Origin: Reclinomonas americana ATCC 50394
Taxonomy: Eukaryota
Assembly: GCA_048213135.1 (NCBI GenBank)
Contig: PS015054.1
Coordinates: forward strand, 85,090-131,490
Direction of reading: 5' to 3'
Length of the DNA stretch: 46,401 nt
Position numbers and translations under genes: made by a program. This document shows positions 1,735-45,803 of this stretch, piece after piece; the stretch's first letter is position 1; every line of letters starts with the position of its first letter. Below the pieces are notes generated by a model that did no database searches, had not been told where the DNA came from, and was given only the letters and a program-made list of their open reading frames with translations.

Positions 1735-4627
1735 ATGCCGACAACCGACAACTGCGTCTGCGTGGTAATCTACAATGCAAGCGTCCGCATTTTCGACGAT
1801 GTTGCGTTAACGTTCTCAGCCCACCTCCTCTCCGCCTCCGACCCTGCCACTCACTGTGCTGCTGCAAGTACACAGGATATATCGTCCACTGTGTTCGCGA
1901 TGGACTTTGTGTACAGCGGCATCATCTTGGTGCAGCTGCTTGTCATCATGTTTTTCTTGGTGTGTTCAGTTCTCCCTCTCTCACTCCCTCTCTCCTTCAC
2001 CGCCGCAGCCACTGATTCTCCTGCACAGGTGCGAGCCTACTACAATGCACACTCCAGCACCCAGCGTCGGCCACCGATCAAACCCGAGTACTTTGCATTT
2101 CTGATCATCACCACCCTCCTCTTTGTGATGATCACACTCGAGATGACCATCACCAGTGCCGTTCTCGGCATCGCAGTCCACCATGTGGTGGTCAACGGCG
2201 GCCAGTATCTCATCTTCTCGTACGTGGCGTTCACCATTTGGACGCGACCGCGTGAGCTGGAACAGCGGCAACAGCGCCGCTGTGCCGGAGCCCTGCTCTT
2301 TCACACTCATCGCTTTGATCGACCGTGGTTGTGGACCGGCGCGATGTCCCTGTGCATGACAATCACGTTTGTCGTACTGCTGGTGAGACCGACGCCTTCT
2401 GTGAAGGAGACCAGTTCCCTCATGATCTCCTCCTCAAATGCAACAGAACACGCTCGAGTGGCGGTCGGCATCATCGGTGGCGTACAAGAACAACTTGGCG
2501 GTGTCGATTGTGTTCGAGGGCATCCTGGCCGTCACGGGTCTCGTGTCGTTGGTGCGCGCCACTGTCATGCGCCACGGATCTGGTTCTGGTGGTCGCGGTG
2601 GAGTGACCAGCGAGATGTTGTACTCGCTGTATGTGACCGTGGTGTACTCCACCTCGGTGGCCTACGACGCTTTGCTGTGGAAGGACAACCAGACGGGAAC
2701 CGGGCAAGTCTCCTGCAGCACAGCCTGCAACTACGTGACATCGCTCACCGTCCAGTGCACATGGTGCGTACGACTGAATACTGTTGCTCCCTTCATAATT
2801 ACAACTGTCCTGATAATGTGCCTCGCAGCTTCATGTTGCGTGCTCACGTGCCCACTCGCACGCATAACCCATCTACTCTTCTGATCTTCCCAGGCTGCAG
2901 CGTTGTCTACTTTTACTTTCGCGAGGTCAGCAACCAGGCCGCCAATGCCGAAGAGTTTCATCTTTTCCTCGGGCCCGTCAGCAGCATCAACACGCCGCGC
3001 AGCGCCGTGCGCGTGCAAGACGAGGCGCAACTGACTGCAGAAGAGAGACAACGAGGTGCTCCCAACCCAGTGCTGCACCTGATCGGACCGCAAGGCAGCC
3101 GGAGTGCCACCGCCGGTAATGCGTACGGCACAATTGGACTCACCATGTTGCGTGTGTCGTCGCGTCAGCAACACAACAAGGCCCGTAGAATTCATGATGC
3201 ATGTCGCACAGTCAAGTTATCAACCCTGCAGAAATCAAGCTGTTGACGTACATTGGTGGCGGTGCTGGTGGCATGGGTTGCGTACCTCCTATGTTTGTCT
3301 CCGGCTCTGAGTCCTGACATTCATTTCTCCTGCTCCAGTGTACCTGGCGAGGTGGCGCGGCAGACAAGTGGCGGTCAAGCAGTTCCACTTTCCACTCACT
3401 GGCGCCACCCAATACGATGCGGAGATGCGGGAGGAGATGTTGCGGAGCTTCACCCGTGAGCTGCAGGTGCTCGGATCGCTCCGACATGAAAACATTCTCA
3501 CCGGTGCGTGTCACGCCACACTCATTGCCACTATTTCTCTCTCTCTCACCCCGTCAGCAGTGTACGGTGCCACGTTTGGCGAGGAAAAGGTCGGCATCGT
3601 CACCGAGTACCTCCCTCGACGAAGCCTGTTTGCGGTTCTGGATCCCGAGCGACTGCGACAGGAACCCATCACAGCCAGCATTGCGGTACGCTCTCCACAC
3701 ACACACTAAGCAGGCAAAAGAGGTTGATGGAAGAAAAGCCCATGCGTAACGTGCACAGTTGAAGATCGCCGTCGGAGCCGCCCGTGGTCTCCAGTTTCTG
3801 CACTCCCGCACACCACCGATTCTGCATCGCGACATCAAGAGCGACAACGTGTTCCTGTGCGAAGACTGGGAACCGAAAATCGGTGACTACGGTGTTGCCC
3901 GCGAGGTCACAGGTCACACCATGCTTGCCACACGAGTGGTGAGCAATGTGTGACGACTTGGTTGCCACGCCGTCCGTATTCCTCACATTTCTGAACGACA
4001 CACAGGGCACGCCGTCCTGGATGGCCCGTGAGTTCGCCACTACGTGTGTGTGCGTGCGTGCGGGTGTACATCGTCCCACTGACTCCTGCATCCCCGCAGC
4101 CGAGGTGGCCAACGCGCAGCCGCACCTGCCGGCATCTGACGTGTACAGTTTTGGTGAGAAGGACCCTTGGATACAGGCGCTTGCTCCGAGCTCTCATCGT
4201 CCGAATGCTGCAGGTGTCGTCTTGTGGGAGCTCGCGACCAAGCAGCGCCCATTCGCCAACCTGCAAGCCGTGCGCATTATCAACGAACTGGCCAACGGGT
4301 GAGTGAGAACAAGAAGGCTCGCAGTTTTACGAAGCCTCTCTCCCTCTCACACAAACACATGGAGCAGAGTGCTGCAGTTGCCGCTCGAGCCCGACAACGA
4401 CGGCAGCTCCATTCACCCGCGCTTCCCGCAGCTCATTCGCAGCTGCCTCGCTTTCGAGCCCACCGAGAGACCACAGATATCAGCCGTCGGTGCGCACGTT
4501 TGTGATGCGTGCAGTCCACCGCTCCAAGTAGCCGCTCACTTTCCGTGCACACACAGTGGCCACTCTCGAGTCCATGCAGAGCGATGTCGACGGCGTGGAC
4601 CTCCATTCCGATGCCAGCGGGCCGTGA
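1735..4627 (+). CDS. 7-transmembrane protein fused to a C-terminal TKL-group Ser/Thr kinase (about 14 introns)
   Basis: Seven hydrophobic segments at about 1890-2920. Spliced kinase motifs [64 protein letters not shown]. Stop TGA 4625-4627; start ATG 1735 is the best candidate. Confidence 0.85.
2829..2834 (+). other. 6-nt micro-exon (CTTCAT) in TM7 of the 7TM-kinase
   Basis: Flanked by introns 2764-2828 and 2835-2900 (65 and 66 nt), each with a CTGAT branch-like motif and a CAG acceptor. Confidence 0.65.
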
Positions 4628-4989
4628 AATCAATTCAATCACCTGTGCATGGTTCCCGACAAGGAAGACGATGCCTGCAGAAAGTCGGCCCAGCCACTGA
4701 CAAACACCATGTGGTGCTGCAGGTCGCGAGCCAGCGTCTGCGTCTTCCCCGCGATGCGACTCACGCACGCATTCACCTCACTCAGCAGATGCAACGTCTG
4801 CCATGCCGCACACGCAAGTGAGACGAATGGACACATACACATAAACAGACTCATGCACACCTCTTCCAGTTGTTGCTGCAAGCGTTGTTCCGTGTGCTCT
4901 GCCATTCTCACGATCGTGTGTTGTGTTATGTGTGTGAAAGCGACTTGTGTCCTCTGTGACGCGACACGACGTTGGTTGCTTTCGTTTCG

Positions 4990-8052: not shown

Positions 8053-8509
8053 GTACCGGCCCGCAGTGCGTACATCGCGTCGAGTTTGCTCTTCTAGCGT
8101 AGATTCTGTTTGCTCGAGGAGAATTTCTCGAACCGGTTTTGTTGCTCACTTTCCCCGTTTGTTTGTGTATGTTCTTGCAGCCTGGGCCACAGCGTGCGTT
8201 CTCACCATTCTGGCCATCATCTTCCCACCGCTCGCGGTGATGTGTGTCGTTGCGTTTCAAGCGCAGTCGCTGCGACGCACAAGATACTGCGTCAATATTG
8301 CTCACTTCACGCAGACCGGATGCGACGCGCATTTCAGCCTGGATCTGTTGCTGACCATTCTGGGCTACCTGCCCGGTGCGTACAGCTGTGCTTTCCCTCG
8401 TATGCCATGGGCGTTTGTGCTCACGATCGACGTCACGCATGCACATGCAGGTCTCATCTACGCTATTGTCATCATATTCTCGGGCCCGCCATCGTCCGCC
8501 ATTGTGTGA
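8053..8509 (+). CDS. PMP3: PMP3/RCI2 proteolipid membrane potential modulator; 5' exon uncertain (possibly the Gly-rich ATG at 7788)
   Basis: Spliced ILAIIFPPLAVMCV|TGCDAHFSLDLLLTILGYLPG|LIYAIVII; stop TGA 8507-8509. Confidence 0.85.
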
Positions 8510-8989: not shown

Positions 8990-11900
8990 ATGTCACAGCC
9001 TCCACATAAATTGGTGCCGTCGTACGGCGGTGAGAACCCAGGGAGTCACTCGTACCCCATGTTTGGGTCGCCCCCTCCACCACCACTTCCTCCTGTTCCA
9101 CCACCACAACAGCAACAACAGCAGCAGCAACAGCAGCCGCAGATACTCTATCACAACCCACCGGTGCACTTGCTTCACCAGCAGGCGCCATCACAGTATC
9201 ATCTCACTCAGCATCAACATCAGCAACACATGCATCACCACGCAATGCCGCCACCCGAGGTGTACTACTCCTACGCTGGCGACGTATACGCGATGCCTTA
9301 TGACGGTGCGTGTGCTCTTGGCGTGCTTGCATCCCCCCCGTGCTCACCTGCTGGTATCACCGCAGCTGCTGCGTACGCCTGGCCACCGCACGGCGCGTGG
9401 CAGAGTGAGCCACGACAGTCGCGCAACCAATCGAAGAAGTCGCGACCGCGGGCACCGGCGAAGCGGCCGACGCCGCGAGTGAAGAGCATCCAAGATGAGG
9501 CGGAGCCCATGGAGTTGTCGTCACCGGATCCGAATCCTCCCCCGATTCGCTCGAGGAGTCCACCACACGTCTCTGGCAGCAGCGCGTCCAACCCTCCACC
9601 ACAGTCGGGGGCGAAGCGAAGCACGTCGCTGATTGCCAAGTTGGATGCACCGCTGTCGACTCCGCGGCAGCAGTCGCGATCAACCCCAGGTGTTCCGTCG
9701 CCGGTGAAGGGAGCTTCGTCGTCGTCCACGTCAGCTGCCCCTACCAAAGTGGCATTGGCGTCTTTCAAGTCGTCGGCGCCACCGGCACCTCCTTCATCCT
9801 CTTCGTCGGCGTCGTCAGCTCCGCCAGCAGCGGCGAAGCCAGCACAGGAATCGTCGTCCAAGTCATCCGCGTCATCCGCACCTTCGTCTTCTTCGTCATC
9901 GTCGTCAACGAAGCCAGCATCAGCACCGGCAGCGGCGGTGGCGGCGAAGCCAGCACCATCTCCTTCCTCTGCGTCATCGACGAAACCAGCATCATCGTCA
10001 TCAGCCGCGAAGTCGGCACTGGAATCGTCATCGTCTTCTTCGTCATCGTCGTCAACGAAATCAGCATCAGCACCGGCGGCAGCGACGAAGCCAGCACCAT
10101 CTCCTTCACCGGCGTCATCGACGAAACCCGCATCATCGTCATCAGCCTCAGCCAAGCCGGCACCGCAGTCGTCATCTTCTTCCTCGTCTTCGTCGTCAAC
10201 GAAATCAGCATCAGCACCGGCGGCAGCGTCGAAACCAGCATCATCGTCTTCGGCCTCAGCCAAGCCGGCACCGGAGTCGTCATCTTCTTCCTCGTCATCA
10301 TCGTCATCAAAATCAGCCTCAGCACCAGCAGCGGCGACGAAGCCAGCACCGTCTTCTTCATCGGCGTCATCGACGAAACCAGCATCATTGTCGTCCGCCT
10401 CGGCAGCCGCAGCGACGAAGCCAGCATCGGAATCGTCGTCCAAGTCGTCAGCGCCACCCGCATCGTCGTCGTCGTCATCGTCATCAACGAAACCGGCCTC
10501 AGCACCATCAGCAGCGAGGCCAGCACAGGAATCGTCATCCAAGTCATCAGCATCATCCGTGCCGCCGCCGTCGTCTTCTTCGTCGGCCTCATCCACGGGG
10601 AAACCGGCTGGCGGAGAGCCGAGCAAGTCGTCTGCGTCATCGACCAAGACTTCTGCTGCGCCACCGCAGCCGCCACCTGCTTCTGCTGTCAGTGCGGCCG
10701 CACAACCGTCCGCCTTTGTTGGTGCGCCGGGCAAGTCGCTGTCATCGTCAAATAGCAGGAGTGCAATGCCGGCCGTGTCGGTCCCCGCCAAGCCGCCATC
10801 GACAATCACATCAACTGCGACTGCTGTACCCCAGCAGCCGACACCGATCGTCGCCTCAGCCGCCGCTTCTTCCGTGCCTTCTGTGATTGCGACACCGGCT
10901 GTCGCTGGTGGGTTGTTGCCGACAAACGCAGCGGCGGTGATGCCATTGGAGCCGCTGCTGACGGGTCCAGTGATTGTCAACTTTGATTCGTCTTCTGAGG
11001 AAAGCGATGAAGACGAGACCGGTGTCGGTTTCCGTTCCATGGCCACGACCCCCGAGTCTTTGGAGACGGATGAAGATCGTTGCGTGTGCGCGCCAAGTGT
11101 GTCCAGTGGCATTCGAAGCTTCTCTGACCGCAGTCGGCGACACAGGCGTGACAAGTTTTTTGCAGTCGATAAAAGCAGAGATGGAGATCCGCAAGGATGT
11201 TTCGCAACCGCAGCCACAGGCTCTGCCTCCGCTGGGCGCACAGCAACAGCAGCAACAACAGCAACAACAGCAACATCATCCGATCGCTGTGCGTATGACC
11301 GGCACCGACATGTCGAGCATTGCGATGCGTCAGATGGAGCTTGACCGATTGCGGCGTGAGATGGAGCTGAAGCAGCAGGCGCTGAAGCTGTTGCAGCAGA
11401 GGAAGAAGAACACTACGAAAAAACCGGGTTTGTTGTTGCTGGAGGCTTGCAGCGAGCCGTCCGTGTGTTCCTCACGCTACACCAATACAGTGTCGGCCAG
11501 CGTCGAGGCCGAGGTGGCTCCTGTGGTATCCTCATCGGCAGCGGTGACCACGCCGTCACCGTTTGCGTCTCTGGCCGGAAGTGTCGCAGGGCTGACGGAG
11601 CCTTTGAACATGAACGACAATGACCGTTCTCCAGCGTCATTGCTGGCATCGGCGGCGGTACCATCGTCTGCGCCTGTCGAGCAACCCGCATCGGCGCCGC
11701 CAGCGAGAGTACCTCCACCACCAATCGCTTTGCCGGTTCGTCTGGTTGGAGATGTTTTGTTCGTGGTGGTGCGCCTGTGCGTGTTGGTGTTGATTTGTGT
11801 TTTCAATGCAGCAGCGCACGGGAGCTACAAGCGAAGCAACGGGCACTGTGGTGGGTGTGGGAAAACGTTCGCTACAGGAGAGCCAGAGTTCGGATGGTGA

Positions 11901-14694
11901 CAGCGTGCAGTCTGCCACCATCAGCAGCAGCAGCACCACCACCACCACAACTGCCATCACCACCACCACCACCACCGCTGCTGCCGCGGCGGTCTCTGAT
12001 GAAGACGTGCTCGGCGATTTTGAGGAGAACTTTAGCGAGTCCGCCAACAAGCGTACGCGGCTGGCTGTTGAGTCGGACAGTCAGCGCGCCATTATGCGGC
12101 AGCGCTATATTCGGTTGCAATCCGAGTTTGAGCGCGGCGTGCTCGACTTGTGTGATCACAAGCGACAGATGGCGGAGTTGAACTTTGGTCGCATGTCGCA
12201 GCGATATCGTGTCAAGGAACTGCGAGCGCGGCGTGCAGTGCTGGAGATGGAGCTGGACGCCGTGGAGGACATGTTAGAGGAGGAGAAAGATACCCGGCGA
12301 AGGGCCAAGGATACGCTGGCGGAAGTGCAATTGCGATATGCGGAGCAATCGGCGATTCTGAAGCAAGTTCGATCTGAACTCGGTGAGCACTCATCTCTTG
12401 TGATCATGATTTATATACCTTCTGTCTTATTGACGATTGTGCGACCAGAATCCATCCGTGCGTCACTGCTGACGTCGGCGGCTCCACCAGCACCCGCTGC
12501 GAATATTGCCGAGGAGAGTTGCGTTCCACTGTGTATTTCTCGCAAGCCTGAGAGATTCTCGGTCGTTGTAGTCATTTCCCTTGTGCACGCAGGCGCGGTG
12601 GTATCTGGTTTACAGGATGCCTCAGAAATGAGGGTGCGCTTGCTGCGAGAAAAGGCACAGCGTGAGCGATTTTTGCGTCAGCGAGAGCGCGAGCAGCAAC
12701 AGCAACAACTACAACAGCAAGGAGAACAACAACAACAACGGCAACAACAAGGTGCAGAGGAGCCAGCATCAGAGTTGCCAGTGGCGCAGCAAGTCGACGG
12801 GCCGCCGACCGAAGCTCCTCGAGCAGTGGCAGTGCCTGTCGAAGCCGAGCTGGAGTTAGAGGTCGCACAGACTGGTGCCGCTGCCACCGCTGCTTCCACT
12901 GCCTCCACTGCTGCTGCTGCTGCTGCTGCCGCTGCCGCTATTGCAGCTGGTCAGTCGAAGGGGGCGAGAAAGCGGCAGCGCAAACAGCAACGACTAAAGG
13001 ACGCTGCTGCGGCTGCTGCCGCTGCCTCTGCTGCCTCTGCTGCCTCTGCTGCCACTGCGACGACGGCTGGCGGCATGGAGGTGGATGCACAGGCGGCGCC
13101 GGTGGCAAGCACATTGACTGCCTCCGCACCGGCGCCTGACACCCCCATGACACCGGCATCGGATGATAGCACGTCAACGAAATCATCGCCACCAGCGCCG
13201 CCACTAGAGGCTCCCAGTCAGTCGACACAGACAAGTACCCTCCCGGCGATCCCTGCTACCATGGATGTTGACATACCGACACAAGCATCTACAGTGGAGG
13301 TGCTCTCCACCGCGGCTGCGCCACCAGTCAAGCGTGCCGAAGTAAGTGCTTTTCCATTGTGCGCAACGACCGATTTGTTTGCACAGCTCGCTGACACCGC
13401 AATCATGCAGCCGTTGGCGGTCCCGAAATCCGCTTCTCCGCTGCCGGCGGCCATCAAAGTGCCTCCGCCGCCCATTCCTCCTCCTCCTCCTCCTCCACCG
13501 CCACCACCACCACCACCACCAGCCCCGCCAGCTACTGCAGGTGCGCCTCCTCCTCCACCGTCGGCACCGGTGGTGAAGCCAATGGTGGTCGATCGGGTGC
13601 CTGTGCCGGCGAAGCAGCCGCTCTCCCGACTGGGTTCACGACTTGCGCAAAAACGAGAGCTACAGGAGCTGCGAGAAGAGTTGCAAAGACGCGCTGACGC
13701 GGCTGCAGTATTGCGACAGAAGCTGCAACGAGATACGACTAGTTGTGTTGTTGATTGCGTGTGCTTGCTGTTGCATCGCGATGTCTGGTGCTAACATTTT
13801 CCGACCGTCCGCAGCCGGCGAGCGTGTTGAGTCGTTCCTCAAATTCACGCCGAAGAAGAAGCAACTGCCCGTTGGTGCGGCAGGCAGTGCGGGTGCGGCA
13901 GCGGCGGCGGCGGCAGCAGCAGCAGCAGCCGCAGCAGGAGCGCCCGCGGACGCCACAGTGGCGTCTGTTGCTCCGTCCGTTAGCAGCGCCCTTTTGCAGG
14001 TGCCGAGTTCTGCTGGCGCCAGCGCCGCAGCAGGGTCCTCGTCGTCACCGTCACGCCCGATTGTTGCCCGCCCCGATACGCGTTCTACGCTGTCAGACAT
14101 TCGTCTGCGACTGTGGGCGCTGGAGCACTTCCGTCACCTGCACAAGAGCAGCAGTTCCGTTGTGCAGTGGGGATTGGATTGCAAGACTGCTGCTCACGTC
14201 GCGACACAGGTGCACCCAGTTCGCTGGACCCAGGTCGCCATTTCTTTGTCACCTGTGGATCGCTGGTGCTCCCGTTCGCCATGTGCAGCACTCGCTGGTC
14301 GCCTTTTGCGTCAGTCGCACGAATCATCTCTGCTGGTCAGGCTTTCCTGTGACATGGTGGAGTCGTGGCGTGGCACTCACTTGCTTCTCGTTCCGTTGGT
14401 GCAGTGCCGCCGGAGGTCGACGAGTCGGATGCTCGTGTGGTGGCGCGCACCCGCGACGCCCTCGTGGCACTCGCGTCACCACGTTCCACTGTCGGGCGAG
14501 GTTTCCGATTCGCCGACGATGCCGATGCGGGGACTGCGAGCGGTGTCACTGCGCACGACGACACGCCGTCACTCGTGCCTCTCAGCATGCGGCTCATGGC
14601 ACCGACGGCTGCTGAGATGTCTGCACAGTTGACAGCGGCTGCACGTTCGGTATGTTTGCGCTCCCTTGTCGTTGCTGCCACCTTCTCCTTCTCA

Positions 14695-14726
<32 letters not shown>

Positions 14727-18753: not shown

Positions 18754-19224
18754 GTCTGGGATTGTGTATGTTGTTGTGTTTATGTGTTTGTTATGTATGT
18801 GTGTGTGTATTTGTTGTCTGTGTATGCGTGTGTATGTATGTGTGTGTTGTGTTCGGCGGCATGGCGAGCTGGCTGTTGCGAGTGTCTCTCTGCTGTGCTT
18901 CGCGGCTTGGAAAAGTCGAGTTGCACCATCGGAAGTGACCCACACAATGTCAGCTGCGCAGATGCGTGTGCGTATGTGGTGGTGGTGGTGGTGGTGGTGG
19001 CGGTGGTGGTGGACGGTGACAGGCATGCAGGCTTTCCACACCAATGACGGAGTCGTAGGGAGGGACGCCTGGAGACAGTCAAGTCTGCTCTTCGCCTCTC
19101 TCTCTCTCTCGACGCACGCTTCCTGTGTTTTCGCTCTTTCCCCCCCAATCCCCGCCGTGTCGCGGTGGGAGGACGCACATGCCAGTCACCACGGCCTTCA
19201 GCCCTGTTGACTGTCTGGCTGTGC

Positions 19225-19230: not shown

Positions 19231-19259
19231 AAGTGGAGGAGAGTGCTGACAGATATGCT

Positions 19260-31242: not shown

Positions 31243-31249
31243 TTGTCTC

Positions 31250-32312
31250 TTATGTCGTCGGCAGGGAGAACACAAAGAGTCGAGCGAGCTGGTTGATGGA
31301 CACAGCAGGTAGAGCACTGCTGCTGTCTCCTTCGCCTCCACTGCTGCTGCTGCTGGCATCGTCGGCTGTGTGCAATGGACATGCAATGAGAATCAGTCTC
31401 TTTTTTTTTCCCTCAGTCAGTGCACGTACGAGTGGTTGCCGGTGGTGGCACGAGCTCACGCACGTCGCACACGACATTCAGTGTCTCGGCCACCTGTCGC
31501 ACGTCGTCCACGCCGACCATGGAGCGCTGCACAAAGGTCAAGAGGAATCGGCGCGCGGCAGTCGTGGCCAGACACGCGCGCACAGTGCGAAGCAGTGCCG
31601 GTAGTGCCGCGGGTTCGTAGCTGCCGGCCGTACACAGAGCCTCAGTGTGGAGGAGGAAGACGGGGGGTGGGGGGAGGAGAGCGCGGAACGCAACATGAGG
31701 TCGGCCCCGACGAGCACATCGACACGCGACACGTCCTTGAGCACCTCCTGCAGCGCCGCCTCGTCGCCCCACGGCAGCTTGCGCACCAGCACGTTATCCC
31801 TGCCGCCACTGTACATGTCAGCGCATGCCCAACGACTTCTCCAAGACAGACGACAGAGACCGATGCGGAAAGTTGAGCTCGACATTGCGCCGCAGCACGC
31901 CCACCGATCCCTCATCGCCATCCGTGAGCACCACCGGCCCTCGCGTCAAGTGTCCACACAGCAGGCCGCACAGACCGACGCCGGAGCCCAACTCCAGCAC
32001 GCCCTCATCGCCCGTCGGAAAAATCTTGTCGCGATCGTCCGCCAGCAACAAATCGCACAGCAATCGCGACGCCGGCCACAGTACACGCGGGACATACGCC
32101 GCCACGTGCTGCAAGTGTCGCGGGAACGTCAGCAGACGAATCGGAGGCACTTGTCGCGACAAGACAATCGAGTGGCATTCGACACTGCCCATAGAATGAA
32201 AGTGAGTGAGTTGCTTTTTGCGATTGTGCATTCGGGCGTACCTCTCGCCGGCATCGTCAAACGCGTCGGCAAGAGCGCCAAAGAGGCCTTCGTCGTCGCC
32301 CACATCGCTCAT
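31250..32312 (-). CDS. Seven-beta-strand protein methyltransferase, METTL21/Methyltransf_16 family
   Basis: VLWPASRLL, VLELGSGVGLCG, VVLTDGD, LRRNVELN, LPWGD and spliced GADLIYEP; alternative ATG at 32333. Confidence 0.9.
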
Positions 32313-32377
32313 TGAGGCACACAATCCGTCCATCAAACGGATCCACTATTTCACCTTTTGTGTGAGAGAAAGAAGCG

Positions 32378-34953
32378 ATGACGCGGGCGGCGACACTGCT
32401 GTTGCTGCTGCTGGCCACGAGCCTCTTGATGGCCGTGCACGTACATGGTGAGTTGTCACTTGTTGTCTTTGTTGTTTTGTGTGTGTGCGCGTGCGGCACG
32501 CGGGATCACATGGGCGCATGCCACCTCCTCAAACTGACTCTTCTCTCTCTTTCTATGCGTGTGTGATTGATTGACAGGCATGTTCAAGGGCGTGTACATG
32601 GGCGTGGAGCGTGTCGAGCCTGGCGACTACTGTTGCGTGCATTGTTGTTGGTCTTGTTTTGTAACTGCTCTTCGTTGTCTCACTTGCTCTCTCTCTCACA
32701 CACACAGACGGGTAAACACGCCGCACTCACACACTGAGAGGCTGTGCTTCATGCTCACTCACTCACTCACTCACTCTCACTCACAGATGGGCGTTTCACA
32801 ATGTGAAGGAGGGCGAGTATCCTTTCCAGGTGACAGTCGTCGGCAATCAAACGTGCAACTCGGTGTTTGAGTGGGACGGCATGTCGCTCTCGCACCTCTC
32901 CTATGATCATCCCGAGTCCAAGGACTGCGAGCATGCGTCATACAGTTGAGCATCTCTTCTTTCTTTCTTACGCACACACATGCTCACTCGGCGACTGACA
33001 CGTGTCCGTTTTTTTCTCTACTTTCTGCAGTGGCGGTGGCTGCGGACTTTACGCGCACTGGTCTCGACGATGTGCTGATCACCAGCATCAAGGATGATGT
33101 TGCGCGCGCGCTCTCTCTCTCACGCACGCCCGCACACACACCTGTCTCTCACAAACATTGGTGCACAGGAGCCTGTCCACGTGATGCACTTTGCGCGTAA
33201 GCTGGTGGTCGATGCTGTGGAGATGCGTGGCGTCAAGAACGGCATGGCCTTCAATCGCGAGGCGGCTGCGCAGTACCAGTTCCTGGCCTCCACGGAGGAA
33301 GGACTCAAGTGCGTTCGATTTTCCTTGCCTGCGTGTGTCCTCGTTGGCTGACATTGCAGTGTGCGCGTCAGGGTGTTCGAGGTGGAGCAGGAGACCAAGA
33401 CGGGCTTCCACGTGGCGAGCAAGGACGCGACGGAGGGCTCGGGCTTTGCGGGCGAGCCGGCGAGCAAGGCCATGCTGGTGGGACCGTACACCTCGCAGCG
33501 TTCCGATGTGCTGGTGGGCTTCCGCCACTACAAGAACATGCGCAACGGACGCTACAAGCTGGTAAACTCCAAGTTCCCGGCGTCGGAGCGCGCCGCCTCG
33601 GCCAATGCGCTCTTTGCGCATGTGGACTTGCGCGACGGCAACCGCAACATGGCGATTATCGAGGCTGACCCTGAGCGTTGCGTTCCTTTTCGTCGTTTGT
33701 TGTTGCACTGCACGTCCGTCTCACACGTGCTGCAACGCAACAGACGGTCAGCGCTTGTGGGTGCTGGAGGACGACACGGAGGAGTACGTGAACGTGGCCA
33801 CGGGTGCCTTTGCCAGCAAGATGAACGTGCAGAGCGTGTGCGTTGCCGATTTCGACAATGACGGCTTCCAGGAGGTGTTTTTGCAGTTGAGTCCCCTATT
33901 CCGCTCACCCTTTCCCCCTCCAGCTTCCTTCCCTTTTTTTCCTTACCCGCATACACGCGCGCGCAGCAACTCGGGTGAGCCGAACCGCATGTTCACGGTC
34001 AAGGACAACAACCTGGTGGAGATCGACGCGGGTGAAGCGGCGGAGCCGGAGCGCCTCGGCACTGGTTGCGCCGTCGGTGACTTTGACGGAGACGGCTACC
34101 AGGAGCTGGTGCTGTCGCACCGCAACGAGACTGCACTGTTGCCGCCCAAGTACATGCGCAAGAGCGTGTACGAGCGCACCTCTGGCAAGGCCGCCTACGA
34201 CGCTATGATGAAGCAGAAGGAGGCGGAGCAGAAGCGCAAGTCCAAGAAGAAGCGCGACGAGGAGAACGGAGTCAACTCTGCGGACGACGAGGAGGAGGAG
34301 GCCAAGAAGAAGAAGGACGAGGAGTGGGTCGACAGCGACAAGGCGCAGGAGGAGAAGAGGAAGAAGAAGAACAAGAAGAACGCCGACAAGAAGAAGTCTG
34401 GCGATGATGACGACGACGCCGCCGCCGGCAAGGACGAGAACGAGTCGCCCAAGATCCGCAGCAATGAGGACGACGATGACGATGATGATGACGACGCCGA
34501 CGACGATTCGGACCCACTTGAGGAGATCTTCTACCACCCCATCACGCTGTACAAGCTGGTCAAGCGCCCCAAGCACCGCCGTATCGCCTTCTTGCCTCTG
34601 ACGCTGATGGGCGCACCGGCTCGCCACGTGTGGGTGCAACTGAAGGACACGGAGGGTGGCGTGCAGACTCGCGTCATTGACACGCACCACTCGCACCTGG
34701 GCGGCGAAGAGGTATGCTGTGAATAGAGTACTGTGTATGTATGTGTGTGCGCTAAGCTCGACAGTCTCTTACCTACTATTCTGATGCATCGCAGCCGATT
34801 GCCAGCTTTGGTTTGGGACCCAAGGCCGCGCTGGAAAAGATCAACCTGATCTACCCCACGGGCATGACCAAGGAGATTGCACTGGCCCTCGACCTCAACA
34901 AGGTGCACCAGATCTCGTACCCGCCAGACGCCATTATCCGCGACGAGCTTTAA
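32378..34953 (+). CDS. CRTAC1-like FG-GAP/VCBS beta-propeller plus ASPIC-UnbV domain protein, with a signal peptide, a K/D/E-rich insert and C-terminal RDEL
   Basis: MTRAATLLLLLLATSLL signal; ADFTRTGLDDV, ADFDNDGFQEVF..N..EPNRMF, GTGCAVGDFDGDGYQELVLSH, PLT..GAPAR, QTRVID....LG.EEPIASFGLG; ends IIRDEL-TAA. Confidence 0.85.
32708..32711 (+). other. 4-nt micro-exon (ACGG)
   Basis: Lies between introns 32632-32707 and 32712-32786; needed to keep the frame (YYGWAFHNV). Confidence 0.8.
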
Positions 34954-36962: not shown

Positions 36963-39886
36963 ATGGCGGCAGTGACAGGTACGCGCTCTCCTTGCTTCTC
37001 ATCTGCATGCCTCTCCTCTCTCTCTCGCTGACTCGCGCTCGCCAGACTTGCAACGTCGACTTCGCGAAGCCGAACATGCGACGGTCTCGTTGCAAAAGCA
37101 GCAGCACTCGATGCAGCAACGAGTTGCGCGATGAGCGTGAGAGCACGCAACACACACACATTGCACACTGAGATCGCGTCTGCACAGGTCGACGAGCTCA
37201 TGGAGGAACTGCGCGTGACGCGACGCAAGTTGGAGACACAGACACACGAGTTTGACTTGCTCAAGCGCAGTGTTGCGTTGCCTCTGTGCATGCGTGCGCG
37301 TACGTGCTATGTACACACACTCTCTCACACTTCGACACACACACACACAGAGCGAAAAAGTAACGACACAGAAACGCGATTGCGATCGACAACTGGAAGA
37401 GGCGCGAAACTACATCAAACGACTCGAGTCTCGCGTGGCCAAGGATGTGCGAGGCATTCAGCTGGTGGAACGCAGTCAGGTGCGCCTTTTATACACGCAC
37501 TTGCCTCTCCTCCCCTCCTCGTTTCCTCACGCCAACTCTGATAGAACGCGGAACGAAGGGCAGCAGTCATGGAGCGATTGGTGGAGGATCGTGAACAGAA
37601 GGAGGTACAGACGCGAGAGCAGCTGGAGGCCGCGCAACGTGAGATTCGTCTCCTCACTGGTGCGCCGCTTGCCTCTTGCCTCTCTGTCTCCGCTGGTGTG
37701 TGTGGCTCACCGTGCGTTGGCAGAGGCACTGGAGATGAAGGCCGAAAACCTCGGTGTCACCGGCAACTATCGCAGCGTGCTGTTGTACGACATTGCCAAG
37801 CTGCGAGAGCAGAACAGGCAGCTGAATGTGCGCGTGGCGGAGATCCGGATGGAGCGCGACTCGATGACTGAGGAGTTGAAGCAGCAAGCCATGACTGGTG
37901 CGCTTCTTCTTCTCGTCTCTCTCTCTCTCTCTCCTCTCTCTCCTGTCCACAGATGCTGACTGGTGCGGCGTGCACGTGTATTAGTGGCTCGCATGCAGGA
38001 GATTACGCGGAGTGCGGGGGCGGCAGTGGACGAGGCTCGGCAGCGCATGAGCGATGCCGAAGAGGAGTCGAGGCAATCGCAGGAACGACTTGGTGCGGTG
38101 GAGCAGGAGAAGGAGGTGTTGCTGGAGTACATTGAGAAGCTGGTGGAGGAGAGTGCCACGTTCCGCACACGGGCCGAGCATGCTGAGGACGAGGCGCAGG
38201 GGCGCGCAGCTCAGGTTCAGTTGACTCGCAACTCGCCTGTCTCTCTGTCGCTCTTGCTGTCTGAAAACGTATCTCGCGCACAGGCTGCCGATCTGCAGGC
38301 ACAACTCTCGGCGTTGCAGCAACAGAAACGGTCGGTAGAGGAAAAGACGTCGGCGGCGCAGCTTGCACGCGATCTGCACGACAAGTCCACACGGAAAGAG
38401 TTGAAGACTGTTCAGCAACAGGTGTGTGTGCGCTCGTGTTTTCGCATACCTGGCGGATGCCTGACGGGGGGAGTTTTGTGTGTGCTGCACGATGCAGTGC
38501 GCTGAGCTGGAGGCTCGACTGCAAGAGGCGCTTCGTGTCAGTGGCGCACTGCAGCAAGATAATGCGGCACTGCGTACCGATTTTGCGCGTGTTCAGCAGC
38601 AGCAGAATGCAGACGAGATGCGAGTGCGCGAGTTGGCGCTGGCCATGAGTGACCTGCGTCGCGAGGTATACATGTGCTCCACCTTTCCACTCTCTTGTTC
38701 TCGATTCGGCTCAGTTTTGCGCACATACGCACACACAGAATGCCGCGCTGGCCGCGGAGCGCGATCGAGTACAGAGCGAATCGCAAAAGACCGAGGCTCG
38801 ATACCTCGACAAGATGAATCAGTTGCTCACCGAACTGAAGATGGTCATTAGCCAGCGGGACGCGGCCATTGCGGAGGCCAAGTCGCTGGCGGCCGCACGG
38901 GATTCCGCACGGCAGGCCGAGGAAAAGGTTTGCAGTGCATTATCCAACTTGGATCGCTCTATGATTGCATCGCTCACCGATGGATGGATGGGGCAGTCGA
39001 AAGCTGCCGACGATCGTGTCAACGAGGCCGAGCGAACCAAAGTGATGCTGAGACGAGCGCTCGCCACCCAGATCGAAGGTCTTCAGGTGCAGCTCGATGC
39101 CGCACATCGCAGCGTTGACGACCTCAAGGCACGCCTGCACGAGTCCGAGATTGATCGGCAGCGATTGAAAGTTCGTCCTCGGTGGGATGATGCTTGTTTC
39201 GTTCAAGGCACTCACCCCCCCTGTCTCCATCTGCGTGCAGTTGCTAGCTCAGTCCAGGAATCGTGGCGGGTCGCCGACACCGGCAAACATTGATCCGCGC
39301 TCGCCGTTTTCGCAGCTGAGTCCACTCGGGAGCTCCGTTGCCTCGCCGTTCGATCCGTCCGCTGCTGCCGCCGTCGACTCACCAAGCTCGTTGGGTGGTG
39401 AACTCGGCACTGCTCTGGCGGGTGGGCGGAGGAGGAGACGGGCGACCAAGGGCACGCTGCAAGACTCGACACCAACAGGCGACGAGGATGCCGACGAGTT
39501 GGATTTGAGCTCCAACTCCGAGGATGAGTTGGCCGACGATAGTGACGACGACGACGGCGACGATGGACAGCGGGCGAACGGCAACAGGAAGAATGGGAGG
39601 AGTGCAGTCGCCGACGACACGAGCAACGACACATCGACGCACCGAGCCGACGGCAAGCATGTTCGGATAGCAGCGACGGACAGCAACGCACAGCCGCTCG
39701 ATGTGCAGTTTCACATGGAGCAGGGCATGAGCGTGCCGGCTTCAGACTCGGCCGATGGTTTGTGGTGCACTTTGTCTCTTCTTGTCTTTCTCTTTCTGAC
39801 GTGGGGGAGAGGGAGCAGGCGCCTTGAAACCTCTGCGGACGCTAATGGATATTGCCGAGGCAGAGGAGGCCGATTTTTACTCGTGA
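36963..39886 (+). CDS. Long coiled-coil hypothetical protein with an acidic/disordered tail
   Basis: Consecutive GT-AG introns give a continuous E/Q/R/L/A-rich heptad frame from MAAVTDLQRRLRE to AEEADFYS-TGA. Confidence 0.75.
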
Positions 39887-39963: not shown

Positions 39964-42900
39964 TTATTCTCCAAACAACGTGGCTTTGTAGCGGTTCACC
40001 AGCGACTGGAAGTCGTGGTCGTCCTTGCGATCCTGCAGCTTCTCGCGCGTTCTCGATCGCTTCTTCTCTACCACAGGCGCGCTGGCTGCTGCTCCTGCCC
40101 TTGCGGGCGCTGGCGCCGCCGAACGGACCATACGTGGCTTCCTCGTCATGGTGCCTTCCGGCTCACTCGCCACTCGTCTCTCCTCGCTGAAACGGCGGGC
40201 CTTGACCGGCGGCGTTCGATCTGACGAGTTTCTCTCCGACGGCGCGTCCGCACTGGGTGCCCGCTTTCGCTTCGATCCTGCTCCCGAGCCATTTTCTGTC
40301 GCCGTGGGTCGAGCACGACCAGGAGAAGGACCGCCGGCTGCAGCGCCACGTTCTTGCCTCTTGGGCCTCCTATCCTGCTGCTGCTGCTGGTGCGGCTTGT
40401 TGCGCCTTTCGTCACCCGACTTACGCTCCCGTGACGACTCCCTCCGAGCGCCGCCCGCAGGCGACGATGCTGCGACGCCGCCATTCTGCAATGCGGCCAA
40501 TCGCTGCTGACTGCGGTTCCGCCCGATCTCCTGATGCTTTCGCAGCTGCTGGAGAGCCAAGTGATTCTCCACCGCAAACTCGACTGACGGTCACACACGC
40601 AGTGTGAGGCAAAAAAAAGGAAATGTCACAGGACTGCGACGCGAGAGAGAACACGCACCAATTAACCGACGGTCCTTGGAGAAGTACTTCGGGTTGTTGT
40701 TGAGCGCTCGCAAGGCATGCAGTGCGTGCTCATGCTCGGCGAATTCGACGAAACCGAAACCGCGGCTGCGTGGCTCACCAGTGCTCGGATCGATGCGCTC
40801 CGGATCACGCACAATCTTGACCTGCTTGACAGCAGCCTTGCGGTTGCCGCCCTTGGTTTCATGAATCGCGGTCATGCACAGTTGACGGAGTGATGCCTCG
40901 TTGTAATGCACAGGTAGGTTGCGGACGGAGAGACGAGTCTGTTGCACATGGAGAGTGGTGAGGTGGAGAAAGCAGCGGAAGCAGAAGAAGAAGAATAATG
41001 GACGCAACGGTCGAGACAAAGTTGTTGGGGTTCTTCAGCTTCTCCTTCTTCTCCTTCCAGGCGGCCTCACGCTTCTTCATGTCGTACTCAGAGATCTCGG
41101 CAGCAGCCTCGCTGTCCGGCATGATCACTGCGCGTCGCAATTGTGTCAGCAAACAGGAAACGAAATAAGAGTTGGACGCAGTGATATGGCACACGCACCG
41201 CCCTCCTTGGCCAAGTACAAATTGCGGCCGTCGCTTTTCTTGGCCTCGTACTCCTTGCGCTCCTGCTGACGCCGTGCGGCCTCGTCGGAGGAGACGGCCT
41301 CACACAGAATCAAACGGCGACCCGATATTCTCACGCCCATGTCGCCGAGCTCCGTGTCCGTCACTAGGATTTTCTTGTTGCTCAACTTCTCCTTTCTGCG
41401 ATCAGCTGCCTGTTGCTCGAGTGCCTTCTCGGCAGCAGTTGACTGTGCGCAGACACGCACACAGACGATTGAGTAGGAGCTCAAGCAGGTGTGTGAGGGA
41501 GAGAGAGAGCTACTCACCACAGAGAGTGCCGCCTGCGCAGATTCACGCTTGGAGAATTGCACGAATGCAGTGCCGCGCGGATGTCCGGTAACCTTGTCGA
41601 GCACCACACGGCAGTAGGCGACACGGCCGAATTCGGAGAATCTGGCAACGCAGTCAGTCGCCGCCAAGAGATATGAGAAGCAGATCGACAGTGAGCAACA
41701 CACACACACCGCTCCTTCAATTCCTGCTCCGTCACCTCGAAAGGCACATTGCGTACAAACAGCAGTGCACCATCCTCCGCTGAACACAAGCACAAACAGT
41801 CAAACTCGTCAGCCTCATACGTTGTGTGTGGGGAGTAACGGTTCGGCGCAACGAAGATGCTTTGGGCGGGGTTCTGTGCACGTATGGCATGAGTGACTTG
41901 TCGACCACAACAAAACACACGCACAATCTCACACTGTTTCTCACCGTTCGTGGTAGTGGTAGCTTTCGCAGCGGCGGCAGCTACAGCACAGAAAGAAACA
42001 CACACATGAGTGCTTTCAAACCACAGAATGAACGGAGGAGATCGGGAGCGCAACAGCGGTGGTCGACGACATCGTCCGTGTCCATGACCTCGGCCAGTGC
42101 TTCCTGCTCATCAATCACTTCGTCGTCGCTGCCCTCTTCCTCATCTTCGTCCTCCTGCTCGTCATCATCACTGGCATCGCTCCCGTCGTCGCTCTCATCC
42201 TCCTCTGACTCCTCGGCGGCGACTGCATCATCGGCATTCTGCATCTCCTTGTCGTCCTCGTCTTCCTCTTCTTCGCCCTTCTTACTCTTCTTCTTGTTGC
42301 TGCCGTCCACCTCCATGTCGTCGGTCGCACCGCTCTCCTGCAGCATCTTCTCGTACTGCACCTTGGCCAGTGCGTGATCCACGGCAATCGTGCGTCCCAT
42401 GAATTCTGTCGCATTCATGCCAGCAATAGCCTGATATAGCATTCAGTGAAGGGTGATGGGAGGCAGAGCTGCAAAGACGGTCACACACCTCATCGGCCTC
42501 CTCTCGCGTCGACATTTGCACAAAGGCAAATCCACGCAGCCGACCGTCGGCCATGCGCGGGATGTTGGCGTCGACCACGTTGCCGAACTTGGAAAACGCC
42601 TTGCGCAGCTTTTCTTCGCCGCACTACCACCCATCCACACTCGTGAGTCGAGCATGCACCAGGCAAGTGAGCTGCAGAGGCAAAAAACGCAACGTGGAAA
42701 GGCATGTTGCGGATGATCAGACGGTGACCCTTGGTACTGAGCACAGCATCCTGCAATTGGGTGCGAGGCAGTGAGGAAAACACGCAAAAGCACTAAAATC
42801 CCCCTTGCGAGTCATGATACGCACTCCTGTGAAGCGCACGAGAAGCTTGCGAGCGGCACCCAGGGCTTTGCGTCCGTTGAGTTTGGTAACCACTTTCTTG

Positions 42901-43991
42901 GCGACCTCGTCCTTGACGTAGCGCACCGTCACTGCACACACACACGAGTGGCGACAAAGCAAATGAGATCAACACAGTGGGGACGTGATGCTACAATGCC
43001 CGTGCCATCCACTCACCTACATCGTCCTCGAAGTTGACGGCCTCGACAGCACCGTACTTCCGCAGCTTCTTCTCAATGGCTTTGCGATTCTCCGTCACCT
43101 CTTCCTCGCTCAGCCCGGTGATCTTGATGTCACGCAGCTTGATGGTGGGATGGTGAATCTCCCTACCACACAACAACGCGGGCGTCACACAACCATCGCG
43201 GACCATGCACACACACACACAGCTCGACGCAACTCGAGCTTCTTTCGGCGTCTTTCCTTCTGCTTCTCTCGCTTCTTGTCGATCTTGGCTCGACGACGTG
43301 CGGCCTCGGGGGTCTCGCCATCGATAGCCGCTGCAGTGGCCTTTTTTGCAGGCGAGGTGGTCGTGGTGCTCGTCGTGCCCTCGTCTGCAAGAAAACAACC
43401 GACGGAAATAATGAGCGAATGTCGCCCGCTGGTGGTGCTCTGCGTGGAGACACATACCTTCGACTTCTTGTCTGAAGCCACGCGGCTGCGCCCGGTCGAC
43501 CTTGAGCACTCGCCCCAGCCACTCAGTGCCATTCAGCGTCTCCACTGCGGTCACTGCATCGGCCTCCAGCGCACTGCATGCATACCACAAAGCTGCGTGA
43601 GCGTGGCCGCCGATCGGAGAATGCAAGACAACACGAGACGCAACAATTCCACAAAGGCGAATCCCTTGCTCTTGTGCGTCTCTGCACATACAGTACACAA
43701 GTCATCAGCAGAGGAAAGAGCACGGGTGCATGCCGAAACAACCAACCTCGATCGCACACAATGAAGGCGCGCTTGATTGGTGCCACTGCCGCAAAGTACT
43801 CCTCGACTGCACACATCGACACACACACAAAAAAAAAGAGTGAGGACCGGTGGTCACAGGGTCTGTGCATGTGAATGTGCACCAACACTCACACAGCCCC
43901 ATTCTTCTTCCACCACGCAACTTTTCTCATTGTCAGCCGAGAACGGCAGGTTCCGCACAAACACGGTGCACGGCAACTCGAGCTTCGGCAT
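39964..43991 (-). CDS. RBM28: Nucleolar multi-RRM ribosome biogenesis protein RBM28/Nop4
   Basis: RRMs VFVRNLP..SKGFAFVEF, RLIIRNMPF..RGFAFVQM, LFVRNVPF..PRGTAFVQF and RLSVRNLP..SRGFGFVEF; DGRNLYLAKEG, KLKNPNNFVS and ALRALNNNP signatures. Confidence 0.95.
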
Positions 43992-44093
43992 GCGGGCGGC
44001 TCACACAAACACACACTGCAAAAGACTGGACAGATTGATGAGTGCGAGCAACACTGTCCACAGCGATCCTGCACGACTACGTACGCGTAGACG

Positions 44094-45803
44094 ATGAGCT
44101 CGGTGGCGGAGAAGCGCAAGCGGGTTCTCCAGGAGCGCGAGCGCTTCTTCCGTCTGCGCGAAGCCGCTGCCGTGCAAGAAGAGATGACAGGAGGCGCATC
44201 CTCAGCTCCTCCTCCTCCTCCACAACAACAACGCGTTCGCACTCCATCGCCTCCACCACTAATGACAACTGCTGCAGTGCATCAGCCACCACGACGGCGG
44301 ACAGGAGCATCGGGCGCAGCGGTGCGATTGATCGGGGAAGGAGGGGTGTTATTTTCGCGCGCGCGCACGCCAGCTGATATGTGTGTGTTGTTGGCGCGTA
44401 GGCGGTCGATGCGGTACATACGGTGGAGGTACTGGATCGCTTGTGGACGCGCATGGAGGGGCGCATTCGTGAGGAGTTGGGCGTGCAGGCGTCGGCGGCG
44501 GCGCTGTTGCAGCAGCAGCAAAAGTTTCGCGTGCGATGACTTGTCCCTTGTGTTTTCCGCTCGGTCGCCTGACTGTGTGTCTGAGGGCAGGTTGGGTGCG
44601 GGTGGATCGGGTGCGGCGGTGGAGCTGGAGGCGTATCGGTGTGCGATCTGCTTGGAGATTATGGCGCCACCGGAACGGTGCCCGATTCTGTTGACACCGT
44701 GTGGGCACTCGTTTTGGTGCGTGCGTGCGTGTTTGTGTGTGCGAGTACACGTAGCGTGCGCTGAGCGATCGATGTTGATGGTGCTCGGCAGCGATCAGTG
44801 CATGGGTCGGTATCAGAAGCTCGGCAAGGCCACATGCCCAATGTGTCGCACACCAGTTGTGTATGCTGCATCGATGACAAGTTCATATCAACGACTGTGC
44901 TGATCTCTCCACTTCTGCAGATCAAGGCGAGCGCCAAGAACATCTCTCTGAAGCAAATCATCGAGGAGTACATTGTACAGGAGCGGGAGGTGTGTGTGTT
45001 GGCGTGGTGGGAAGCCACTCGTTCATGCGGATGAGTAACCCCTTTCAACGTATCATCGTCAGCACCAACGATCGCTGGCCAACGGGCCACCCAAGACGGC
45101 CCTGCAGCAAATGATATCGAGTGGTGCGCATGGTTCGAGTGCACTCGTCGCCAACGAGCGCATCCTCGAGGCCCTTCGTGACATTCCCGACGAGGAGACG
45201 CAACAGCGGGCACAGAGGTGTGTCTGCAGTCCCCTTGTCGGCACCGAGCATCTCTGTCTCTCTCACACACTCCCATCACGCGTTCAGGTACTTGCAGTCG
45301 TACCGCACCTACAACATTCGATACCAGGTGTTGTCGGACGAGTTGCGCGACACCATGGGCGAGCAGCGACAATCGCGTGAGAGGCACTCGCAGTTGCGTG
45401 CAGCGAGGATGAGGAACGAAGGCCAGCGTGGTCCACTCCTCACACCACTCCTGCAGACGCGAGAGGCAATGTCGCGACGTTGAAGCGCGTGCGGCATACC
45501 TGGAAGCACAGATCCGCTCAATGCAAGACGAACTGGAGATGTTGACGAGCCGGCTGCACGTGATGCACGACGAGGTGACGTTGCATGCCTGTAGCAAAGC
45601 GCATAAAGCGGGGAAGGAACTCAACAACGACCGTCTGTGTTTTGCAGTTGGACGAGGAACAAGCGACGCAGGAAGAGATCGACCAGCGTGTGGATCTGTG
45701 CCAGAGAACACTGACACAGGTCGAGCGAGACCGCGACAAGGCGCGAGTCTTTGTGGAGAACCTGTTCCCCAACCTGGATCTGGATCGCCTGGAGGATGGT
45801 TGA
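44094..45803 (+). CDS. RING-HC finger protein with coiled coils (probable E3 ligase)
   Basis: Spliced CAICLE...PCGHSFCDQC...CPMCR...NISLKQIIE; stop TGA 45801-45803. Confidence 0.85.

Follow-up and report, generated by a model that had tools for sequence, protein, structure and literature searches.

Atypical 5′ splice-site recognition in described systems

This analysis concerns the 5′ splice sites (donors) of introns in a stretch of 46,401 nucleotides from Reclinomonas americana ATCC 50394 (contig PS015054.1, positions 85,090 to 131,490 of the forward strand), referred to throughout as the window, in which one class of introns begins with the word GTTGCGT and lacks the preference of ordinary donors for a G as the last exon base (position -1). 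The closest described systems are human donors that pair with the U1 small nuclear RNA (snRNA) in unusual registers. The shifted U1 register at atypical human 5′ splice sites, credited to Roca and Krainer (2009) in Tan et al. (2016, PMC4856993), places the intron G at +1 where the exon-final G usually pairs and displaces the pairs by one, with cleavage still at GU and the exon end unused; the same arrangement is proposed here. As presented in the portion of that paper drawn on here, the human register is rare and its model site, GUCAAGU, has two mismatches after G+1, whereas in the window a discrete heptamer with one such mismatch (GUUGCGU, judged from sequence alone) is found at roughly 1/4 to 2/5 of traced introns. 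The human sites with a bulge at +2/+3 number 68 predicted and 54 curated among 201,541 donors (Roca et al. 2012, as cited in PMC4856993). They resemble the class described here in starting with GUU and in matching U1 once one U is omitted; however, they keep the -1 G pair, which is missing here in 25/27 donors, and a bulge would be favoured here only where -1 is G.

Roy and Bowser (bioRxiv 10.1101/2022.06.08.495308) describe U1 arms that have co-evolved with atypical donors in the Archamoebae Entamoeba and Mastigamoeba, as well as donors with a pyrimidine at +4 in Micromonas and Thecamonas, and the portion of the preprint drawn on here mentions no class with an extra base. Mastigamoeba is alike in having a lineage-specific donor, GUGCGY, in which +4 is C, and in having a U1 arm, ACGUAC, altered to match; the C at +5 of the window's class predicts a similar G. 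The Archamoebae differ in having one donor class in the ordinary register, no extra base being reported in the same portion, and the introns of M. balamuthi (3.4 per gene, mean 137 bp; PMC8136499) are longer and fewer than those of the window, which measure ~70 nt and are many more per gene. Two major 5′ splice-site classes have also been described, U5-type (AG//GU) and U6-type (//GURAG), together with left- and right-handed LUC7 proteins (PMC9803359, PMC11732430, PMC11842720). Exon-side and intron-side information trade off in those systems as they do here, but there they form a continuum within one register, in contrast to discrete classes offset by one base. Literature searches combining the motif with splicing terms, and on noncanonical registers, found no such class described in any organism, subscription journals being outside their coverage.

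Two kinds of intron in the window

The window contains two discrete kinds of GT-AG intron, G/GTGNGT and N/GTTGCGT(N)C, where the slash marks the junction. Introns were traced with a dynamic-programming gene finder using two codon tables, in which donors are scored by a mixture of two components confined to intron positions +3 to +9, so that exon bases have no influence on the score. From 29 seed introns a TGCGT component emerged without guidance, and 64 introns were called in 12/12 parameter settings (25 GTTGnG, 37 GT[AG] and 2 other). The initial annotation had claimed 30 GTTGnG donors, of which 27 could be supported: 25 were called in 12/12 runs, 32632 in 6/12, and 33886 was added on homology alone. 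Independently of the exon-final base, 8 GTTG-class and 10 ordinary junctions were fixed first by homology or motif spacing. For this, 6 of 91 homologues (tblastn) were compared for the G-protein alpha subunit (G-alpha), 7 of 28 for the CRTAC1-like gene, and 12 of 150 listed homologues, picked by summed blastp score among those of >600 residues, for the Nop4/RBM28-like gene; among the ordinary kinase junctions, only 3939 and 4154 were compared with the sequence of a kinase structure (CTR1). A homologue search with the glycosyltransferase gave one match only, too few to check the junctions at 26550 and 27014. The GTTG-class introns are as follows, each called in 12/12 runs apart from 32632 (6/12) and 33886 (homology).

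29999..30053, minus strand: G-alpha, GTTGCGT, exon ends TA (-1 A); DSAEY/FFENL continuous with 6 homologues
29704..29773, minus strand: G-alpha, GTTGCGT, -1 A; protein continuous with homologues, precise cleavage point ambiguous
29381..29444, minus strand: G-alpha, GTTGCGC, -1 A; loop 2 residues longer than in homologues, only plausible
33886..33966, plus strand: CRTAC1-like, GTTGAGT, -1 A, 81 nt; unspliced form has a 27-residue insert missing from 7/7 homologues, spliced form gap-free
33677..33743, plus strand: GTTGCGT, -1 C; gapless but weak homologue alignment
43807..43921, minus strand: Nop4/RBM28-like, GTTGCGT, -1 A; gapless against 12 homologues
43574..43644, minus strand: Nop4/RBM28-like, GTTGCGT, -1 T; GFAFVE/FALEADAV gapless
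42624..42693, minus strand: Nop4/RBM28-like, GTTGCGT, -1 C; IIRNMPFH/CGEEKLRK gapless
40939..41008, minus strand: Nop4/RBM28-like, GTTGCGT, -1 C; NPNNFVST/TRLSVRNLP gapless
3277..3338, plus strand: kinase, GTTGCGT, -1 G (exception); IGGGAGGM then VYLARW, with Y at Pkinase profile position 16
27014..27084, plus strand: glycosyltransferase-2, GTTGCGT, -1 G (exception)
804..866, minus strand: GTTGCGT, -1 A
1801..1875, plus strand: GTTGCGT, -1 T
2835..2900, plus strand: GTTGCGT, -1 T
3147..3211, plus strand: GTTGCGT, -1 T
8249..8314, plus strand: GTTGCGT, -1 C
11079..11133, plus strand: GTTGCGT, -1 C
12518..12660, plus strand: GTTGCGT, -1 A; 3′ end uncertain, acceptor score weak
23235..23336, plus strand: GTTGCGT, -1 T
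26550..26614, plus strand: GTTGCGT, -1 T
31621..31694, minus strand: GTTGCGT, -1 T
32632..32836, plus strand: GTTGCGT, -1 T; 3′ end uncertain
32945..33030, plus strand: GTTGAGC, -1 A
33099..33168, plus strand: GTTGCGC, -1 T
37272..37371, plus strand: GTTGCGT, -1 T
41981..42054, minus strand: GTTGCGC, -1 T; low-complexity region
45393..45456, plus strand: GTTGCGT, -1 A

The 8 junctions fixed by homology or motif spacing support the GTTGCGT donors as real intron starts. The position of cleavage is best seen at 30053, where the exon ends GAG TA, adding the intron G would give TAG, and the homologues need Y (TA+C); cleavage before the G, as proposed in the initial annotation, is thus borne out. 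At 3277, the junction presumably fills the kinase glycine loop exactly, judged by the profile consensus.

Ordinary introns with junctions fixed in the same manner are listed next.

30409..30472, minus strand: G-alpha, G/GTGAGT; KLLLLG/AGESGK continuous
34712..34794, plus strand: CRTAC1-like, G/GTATGC; spacing to PIASFGLG as in homologues
41128..41198, minus strand: Nop4/RBM28-like, G/GTGCGT; NLYLAKEG/VIMPDSEA gapless
40584..40658, minus strand: Nop4/RBM28-like, G/GTGCGT; SKDRRLI/VEFAVEN gapless
41642..41709, minus strand: Nop4/RBM28-like, G/GTGTGT; ELKER/FSEFGRVAY, homologue spacing kept
41443..41517, minus strand: Nop4/RBM28-like, G/GTGAGT; follows exon FSEFGRVAY...AALSV, skipped by the finder and found by tblastn
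42431..42488, minus strand: Nop4/RBM28-like, G/GTGTGT; EEADE/AIAGMNATEFMGR gapless against 17 homologue residues
43682..43746, minus strand: Nop4/RBM28-like, G/GTTGGT; FIVCDRE/THKSKGF keeps the 9-residue homologue spacing
4154..4213, plus strand: kinase, G/GTGAGA, 60 nt, in frame without a stop; unspliced form has 20 extra residues between DVYSFG and VVLWELAT
3939..4005, plus strand: kinase, G/GTGAGC; next exon GTPSWMARE against CTR1 GTPEWMAPE, supported

The junction at 4154 is fixed by the alignment of VVLWELAT to SFGVILWELAT of the CTR1 kinase. A GTT start does not by itself place a donor in the displaced class: that at 43746 (GTTGGT) has T at +3, yet its G+5 and T+6 are those of the ordinary register and it is preceded by G. 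This donor and those at 41709, 41517 and 42488, all after G, were obtained when tblastn and frame reading corrected four errors in the Nop4 model. The finder had mis-called 43759, 42478, 41705 and 3894 and read through the in-frame introns at 33886 and 4154. Since such errors push ordinary donors towards background composition, the contrast between the classes is understated if anything. The donors at 4046, 41709 and 43218 lie inside GT runs, where the exact GT of cleavage cannot be told from sequence alone.

Two further features of individual introns may be recorded. The introns 33886-33966 (81 nt) and 4154-4213 (60 nt) are multiples of three without an in-frame stop, and, if retained, they would lengthen the protein by 27 or 20 residues without truncating it. 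The intron 33677-33743 ends in GCAACGCAACAG, in which ACGCAAC (a minus-strand match to the motif, 33735-33741) stands just before the acceptor; as this is the exact complement of the intron's own donor word, the two intron ends could pair.

In composition, all 27 GTTG-class donors start with GT and read GTTG(C/A)G, and the traced 3′ ends are (C/T)AG. Ordinary donors read G/GTG-N-G-T, with G at +3 in 23/26 and at +5 in 26/26. C occupies +5 of the GTTG class in 25/27, while the corresponding +4 of ordinary donors varies (A 9, C 8, T 8, G 1; p 3e-6), and C is also found at +9 in 16/27 against a background of 29% (p 0.001), ordinary donors having no preference at +8/+9. The GTTG class is thus one narrow word, hence not merely the ordinary motif slid along the intron. 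A slide of AG/GTRMGT to A/GTTGMGT, as proposed in the initial annotation, is upheld in part: independence of the exon G and the unfavourable ordinary register (see below) agree with it, and the fixed +5 C, the C at +9 and the lack of enrichment of GTTGAGT do not.

The word is also enriched irrespective of gene models. With both strands counted, there are 46 copies of GTTG[AC]GT where 18.9 ± 4.3 would be expected, 46 being reached in 0/100 shuffles, and the excess is carried by GTTGCGT alone (39 against 12.0 ± 3.8, 3.3-fold, reached in 0/200 shuffles); in the same 200 shuffles no enrichment was seen for GTTGAGT (7 against 7.8) or GTTGGGT (5 against 4.7), nor is the looser GTTGNG enriched (150 against 150.8). 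After A, C or T, GTTGCGT is present 34 times against 9.6 expected, and after G 5 times against 2.4, 18/200 shuffles reaching 5. Within predicted genes it lies on the sense strand in 28/31 cases, a bias that is partly circular as the finder scores the donor word.

The two kinds are otherwise alike in length (median 70 against 72 nt), in phase (10/7/8 against 9/9/4), in a branch-like CTCAC and in a CAG acceptor. When 21 of the 27 GTTG-class introns were aligned, only GTTGCGT, CTCAC and CAG were common to them, mean column identity being 31%; the CTCAC (trained motif TCTCAC) lies upstream of CAG, with the acceptor 55-75 nt downstream of the donor. With GT and AG ends, a branch-like motif and continuous protein at 8 checked junctions, the GTTG class would qualify as U2-type GT-AG introns. 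An introner-like mobile family was considered and rejected, the 21 aligned introns sharing no internal sequence. Minor (U12-type) introns have the donor consensus /RTATCCTT, and they too were rejected, with 27/27 donors reading GTTG(C/A)G.

The exon-final base

The contrast between the two classes is strongest at -1. The 27 GTTG-class donors have A 9, T 11, C 5 and G 2 (G at 3277 and 27014), whereas the 26 ordinary GT[AG] donors have G 23, A 2 and C 1, giving G in 2/27 against 23/26 (Fisher p 1.1e-9). The counts of C and G, and the two G sites, are those of the initial annotation, which had A 14 and T 9 in place of the A 9 and T 11 found on retracing. Among checked junctions only, the -1 G is present in 1/8 against 10/10 (Fisher p 2.5e-4), and ordinary donors therefore carry it in about 88-100% (23/26; 10/10 checked). 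The difference persists among the 64 always-called introns (2/25 GTTGnG against 22/37 GT[AG], p 4e-5) and when length is held to <=120 and both signal scores to >=1.5 (2/23 against 15/18, p 2e-6). In the kinase gene, nine ordinary donors follow G (1960, 2383, 2764, 3504, 3686, 3939, 4154, 4299 and 4490) and the exception, 4046, lies within a GT repeat, which reproduces the earlier count of 9/10.

The GTTG class is without a strong preference for G, rather than avoiding it. G precedes GTT at 168/1089 non-motif sites (15%), so that 2/27 is an absence of preference and no depletion (binomial p 0.19); the earlier statement that G is almost never found holds as a contrast with ordinary donors but not in relation to this background. 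The class as a whole is close to the background before GTT (A.20, C.27, G.15, T.38), though A may be slightly over-represented (9/27 against 20%, p 0.08). The resemblance of its -1 (A 9, C 5, G 2, T 11) to the -2 of ordinary donors (A 8, C 5, G 1, T 12) was rejected as support for a slide, being uninformative where both equal the background before G. A motif-level test without gene models found -1 G in 27% of 141 GTG[AC]GT sites, which are mostly not donors, against 5/46 GTTG[AC]GT sites (p 0.026). Stratified by downstream acceptor score, the figures were 7/14 GTGMGT and 0/8 GTTGMGT, from an acceptor model too weak to rely on.

A further 23 GTTG[AC]GT sites lie outside the traced set, with T 10, C 9, G 3 and A 1 at -1. 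Among them, 20326, 20464, 21480 and 23716 look like donors in the poorly modelled genes at 13-25 kb, and another GTTGCGT site without a gene model is present at 14763. At 25315 (plus strand), upstream of the glycosyltransferase gene, GAG/GTTGCGT is followed by a CAG acceptor after 77 nt, in frame with the flanking open reading frame (ORF); this could be a third GTTG-class donor after G.

Pairing with U1 and a displaced helix

A displaced U1 register is the best available reading of these donors; it is unproven, and may as easily turn out wrong as right. The same major spliceosome would remove both intron kinds. In the GTTG class the helix with the U1 5′ arm would be moved inwards by one base, from intron positions +2 to +6, as in ordinary donors, to +3 to +7. 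The first G of the intron would then take the place of the exon-final G, and the exon end would play no part; cleavage would still fall before the only GU available. Because a helix displaced in this way would contain a mismatch or an unpaired segment at +2, all its remaining positions would have to pair, and the invariance of GCGT would be accounted for by this requirement. The constant C at +5 would in turn predict a U1 with G, rather than U or pseudouridine, at arm position 5, as reported for Mastigamoeba. The donor at 43746, where an ordinary-register G+5 and T+6 go together with an exon-final G, is counted in favour of this reading.

Pairing was modelled with nearest-neighbour energies (ViennaRNA, unmodified U) for four U1 5′ arms: the textbook arm AUACUUACCUG, as printed in Tan et al., a variant with G at position 5 after the Mastigamoeba ACGUAC, and two hypothetical arms. 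After a non-G exon, GUUGCGU in the ordinary register is predicted at +0.9 to +1.0 kcal/mol under all four, and the shifted register comes out best when -1 is not G; better pairing in the ordinary register, named in the initial annotation as what would speak against a slide, is thus not what the models give. Depending on which arm and flank are assumed, the shifted register ranges from +1.7 to -7.5 kcal/mol. For a non-G exon and an arm with G at position 5 it would reach -4.2 to -7.5, compared with -3.3 to -5.3 for a bulged register; the ranges recorded across arms carrying this G extend from -0.2 to -7.5 for shifted pairing and from -0.1 to -5.3 for bulged. A at -1 would add ~1.3 kcal/mol in the shifted register only. 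After a G exon, a bulge is predicted to beat the shifted register by ~5-6 kcal/mol under all four arms. The textbook arm would prefer GUUGAGU over GUUGCGU by ~3-6 kcal/mol, opposite to the observed usage; if U1 reads this word, its arm is predicted to carry G at position 5.

Several points weigh against the displaced helix. All pairing statements depend on the four assumed arms, and under the textbook arm a non-G exon yields no stable register (+1.7 to -1.5, by flank and A at -1), nothing pairing with a neutral flank (+0.4 to +1.8 kcal/mol). Where either register pairs, shifted is ahead of bulged by just 0.1-2.2 kcal/mol; when -1 is U or C, the most stable structures of the shifted kind lose the G+1 pair, and the core helix from +3 to +7 is common to both. 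With every arm, the ordinary GUGCGU after a non-G exon is bound more strongly (-1.2 to -9.1) than the shifted word; therefore a slide does not explain the extra T, and in these models U1 affinity alone would not explain why non-G exons take it. The free +4 of ordinary donors gives no indication of its own that arm position 5 is G, the C at +9 has no place in a U1 helix of usual length, and the -1 G of the GTTG class is at background rather than depleted. Finally, 19 of the 27 GTTG-class donors come from the gene finder alone, which erred elsewhere.

Alternative explanations

The core helix could also be used with a bulged U, with normal pairing of G+1 and U+2, an additional U at +3 (or +2) looped out of the helix, and GCGU in the part normally played by +3 to +6. 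Such a register has been validated for human sites, with 54-68 predicted cases (Tan et al. 2016, PMC4856993, as far as the cited portion goes), and in the models it is favoured by ~5-6 kcal/mol for the two donors after G (3277 and 27014) under all four arms. The missing -1 G could be accommodated if the word were kept only where coding forbids an exon-final G. However, in a bulged register the -1 G would add ~5 kcal/mol, stabilising the helix as in ordinary donors, and should be selected; it is found in 2/27, at or below background, which favours the shifted register and is the main argument for it over the bulge. For non-G exons the bulge is also modelled as 0.1-2.2 kcal/mol worse, the one exception being the textbook arm combined with a neutral flank, where it is 0.1 better. 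Nor does it explain why such exons skip the better-pairing GTGCGT. A bulged register is considered unlikely. The near-invariance of the GTTG word over seven positions, with C at +5 in 25/27 and at +9 in 16/27 while ordinary donors vary, would be expected of a separate recogniser, either a second U1-like snRNA or a one-base variant of U1 (ACGCAAC), reading GUUGCGU by seven Watson-Crick pairs while ordinary U1 reads G/GUGNGU. The hypothetical ACGCAAC arm would bind at -10.3 to -11.8 kcal/mol whatever the base at -1, and ordinary donors at only -3.3 to -9.0. Two donor codes would then stand side by side, a second U1-like RNA committing ~1/3 of introns and cleavage falling one base upstream relative to its helix. 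Set against this are the use of the rare variants GTTGAGT and GTTGCGC (33886 being verified by homology) and the result of an Rfam scan, in which no snRNA was found in the window; the recogniser is judged distinctly unlikely, and the two-code arrangement that goes with it is equally doubtful.

An explanation without any special register would see here a local form of the division between exon-side- and intron-side-defined 5′ splice sites (U5 loop 1 against the U6 ACAGA box; LUC7 left against right), in which the exon G is not needed where the intron word is strong and the -1 base is simply unconstrained. The anticorrelation has been described for animals, plants and yeasts in the portions cited of PMC9803359, PMC11732430 and PMC11842720. 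Those classes share one register, whereas the GTTG word is one discrete heptamer with an additional base, and the window displays no continuum, ordinary donors without the -1 G being rare (3/26; 0/10 checked); this explanation is held to be very unlikely. That the pattern is an artefact of tracing, with many GTTGCGT sites not donors or with boundaries elsewhere and the -1 bases those of chance matches, would fit the ~12/39 matches expected by chance, the background composition at -1 and the junctions mis-called by the finder and later corrected by homology. Against it stand the 8 junctions fixed by homology or motif spacing, the 3.3-fold enrichment, matched in 0/200 shuffles, the 28:3 sense-strand bias, and the CTCAC and CAG at 55-75 nt in the 21 aligned introns, which leave an artefact extremely improbable.

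Gene content and sequence context

The window is eukaryotic nuclear DNA of 56-61% G+C across its 46.4 kb, in which short introns are densely packed. Pfam families were sought in 68 long open frames and 150 shorter ones, and these results were combined with homology searches to identify the genes below.

About 1735-4627, plus strand: TKL-type kinase
6585-7292, minus strand: CDPF1-like gene
25765-27213, plus strand: glycosyltransferase-2 gene
29252-30629, minus strand: G-alpha
31250-32333, minus strand: Methyltransf_16 gene
32580-34953, plus strand: CRTAC1/ASPIC-UnbV-like gene
35376-36418, minus strand: acyltransferase
39964-43991, minus strand: Nop4/RBM28-like protein with four RRM domains

In the collections searched, the best protein relatives have 50-71% identity and are taxonomically scattered, none coming from this organism itself, whose lineage would seem to be unsampled there; for the Nop4-like protein the nearest named relatives are green algae and early-diverging fungi, at ~50% identity. 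The Rfam scan of the window gave no snRNA, U1 included, or other family at the gathering score. Searches of the Protein Data Bank (PDB) gave no match for the methyltransferase exons and none at threshold for the kinase ORF of the 3277 region, which was then placed by Pfam. A first metagenome query returned no related DNA, and a second returned 80 G-alpha loci, none close (<=76% in one segment). GTTGCGT was not enriched in any of these 80 loci, and the lone exon-end match (L074) is coding sequence.

Simple GT/CA-rich sequence is plentiful throughout the window (GTGTGT 185 against 56.5 expected, GTATGT 29 against 8.1). A long open frame at 9499-10752 (plus strand) has a GC content at third codon positions (GC3) of ~0.85, an opposite strand that is also open, and no family match; its translation is hydrophobic and Ser/Thr-rich, with internal repeats of units like VIVVNE(A/I)SISTGG. 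The region 13000-25000 (plus strand) has a strong skew of T over A (AT skew down to -0.27) and contains TPR/HAT-like and WD40-like exon fragments with a codon bias much weaker than in the other genes, for which the finder's models are fragmentary.

Implications for splice-site recognition

It is the absence of a -1 G preference that tells a displaced helix apart from one with just a bulge, and it yields a direct prediction, namely a U1 arm with G at position 5. Displaced U1 registers are known as rare human exceptions; if the reading is true for the window, such a register can be a routine code, and the organism would offer a natural system for asking what fixes the position of cleavage after U1 has bound. 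It would also explain the failure on this genome of gene finders trained on G/GTRAGT.

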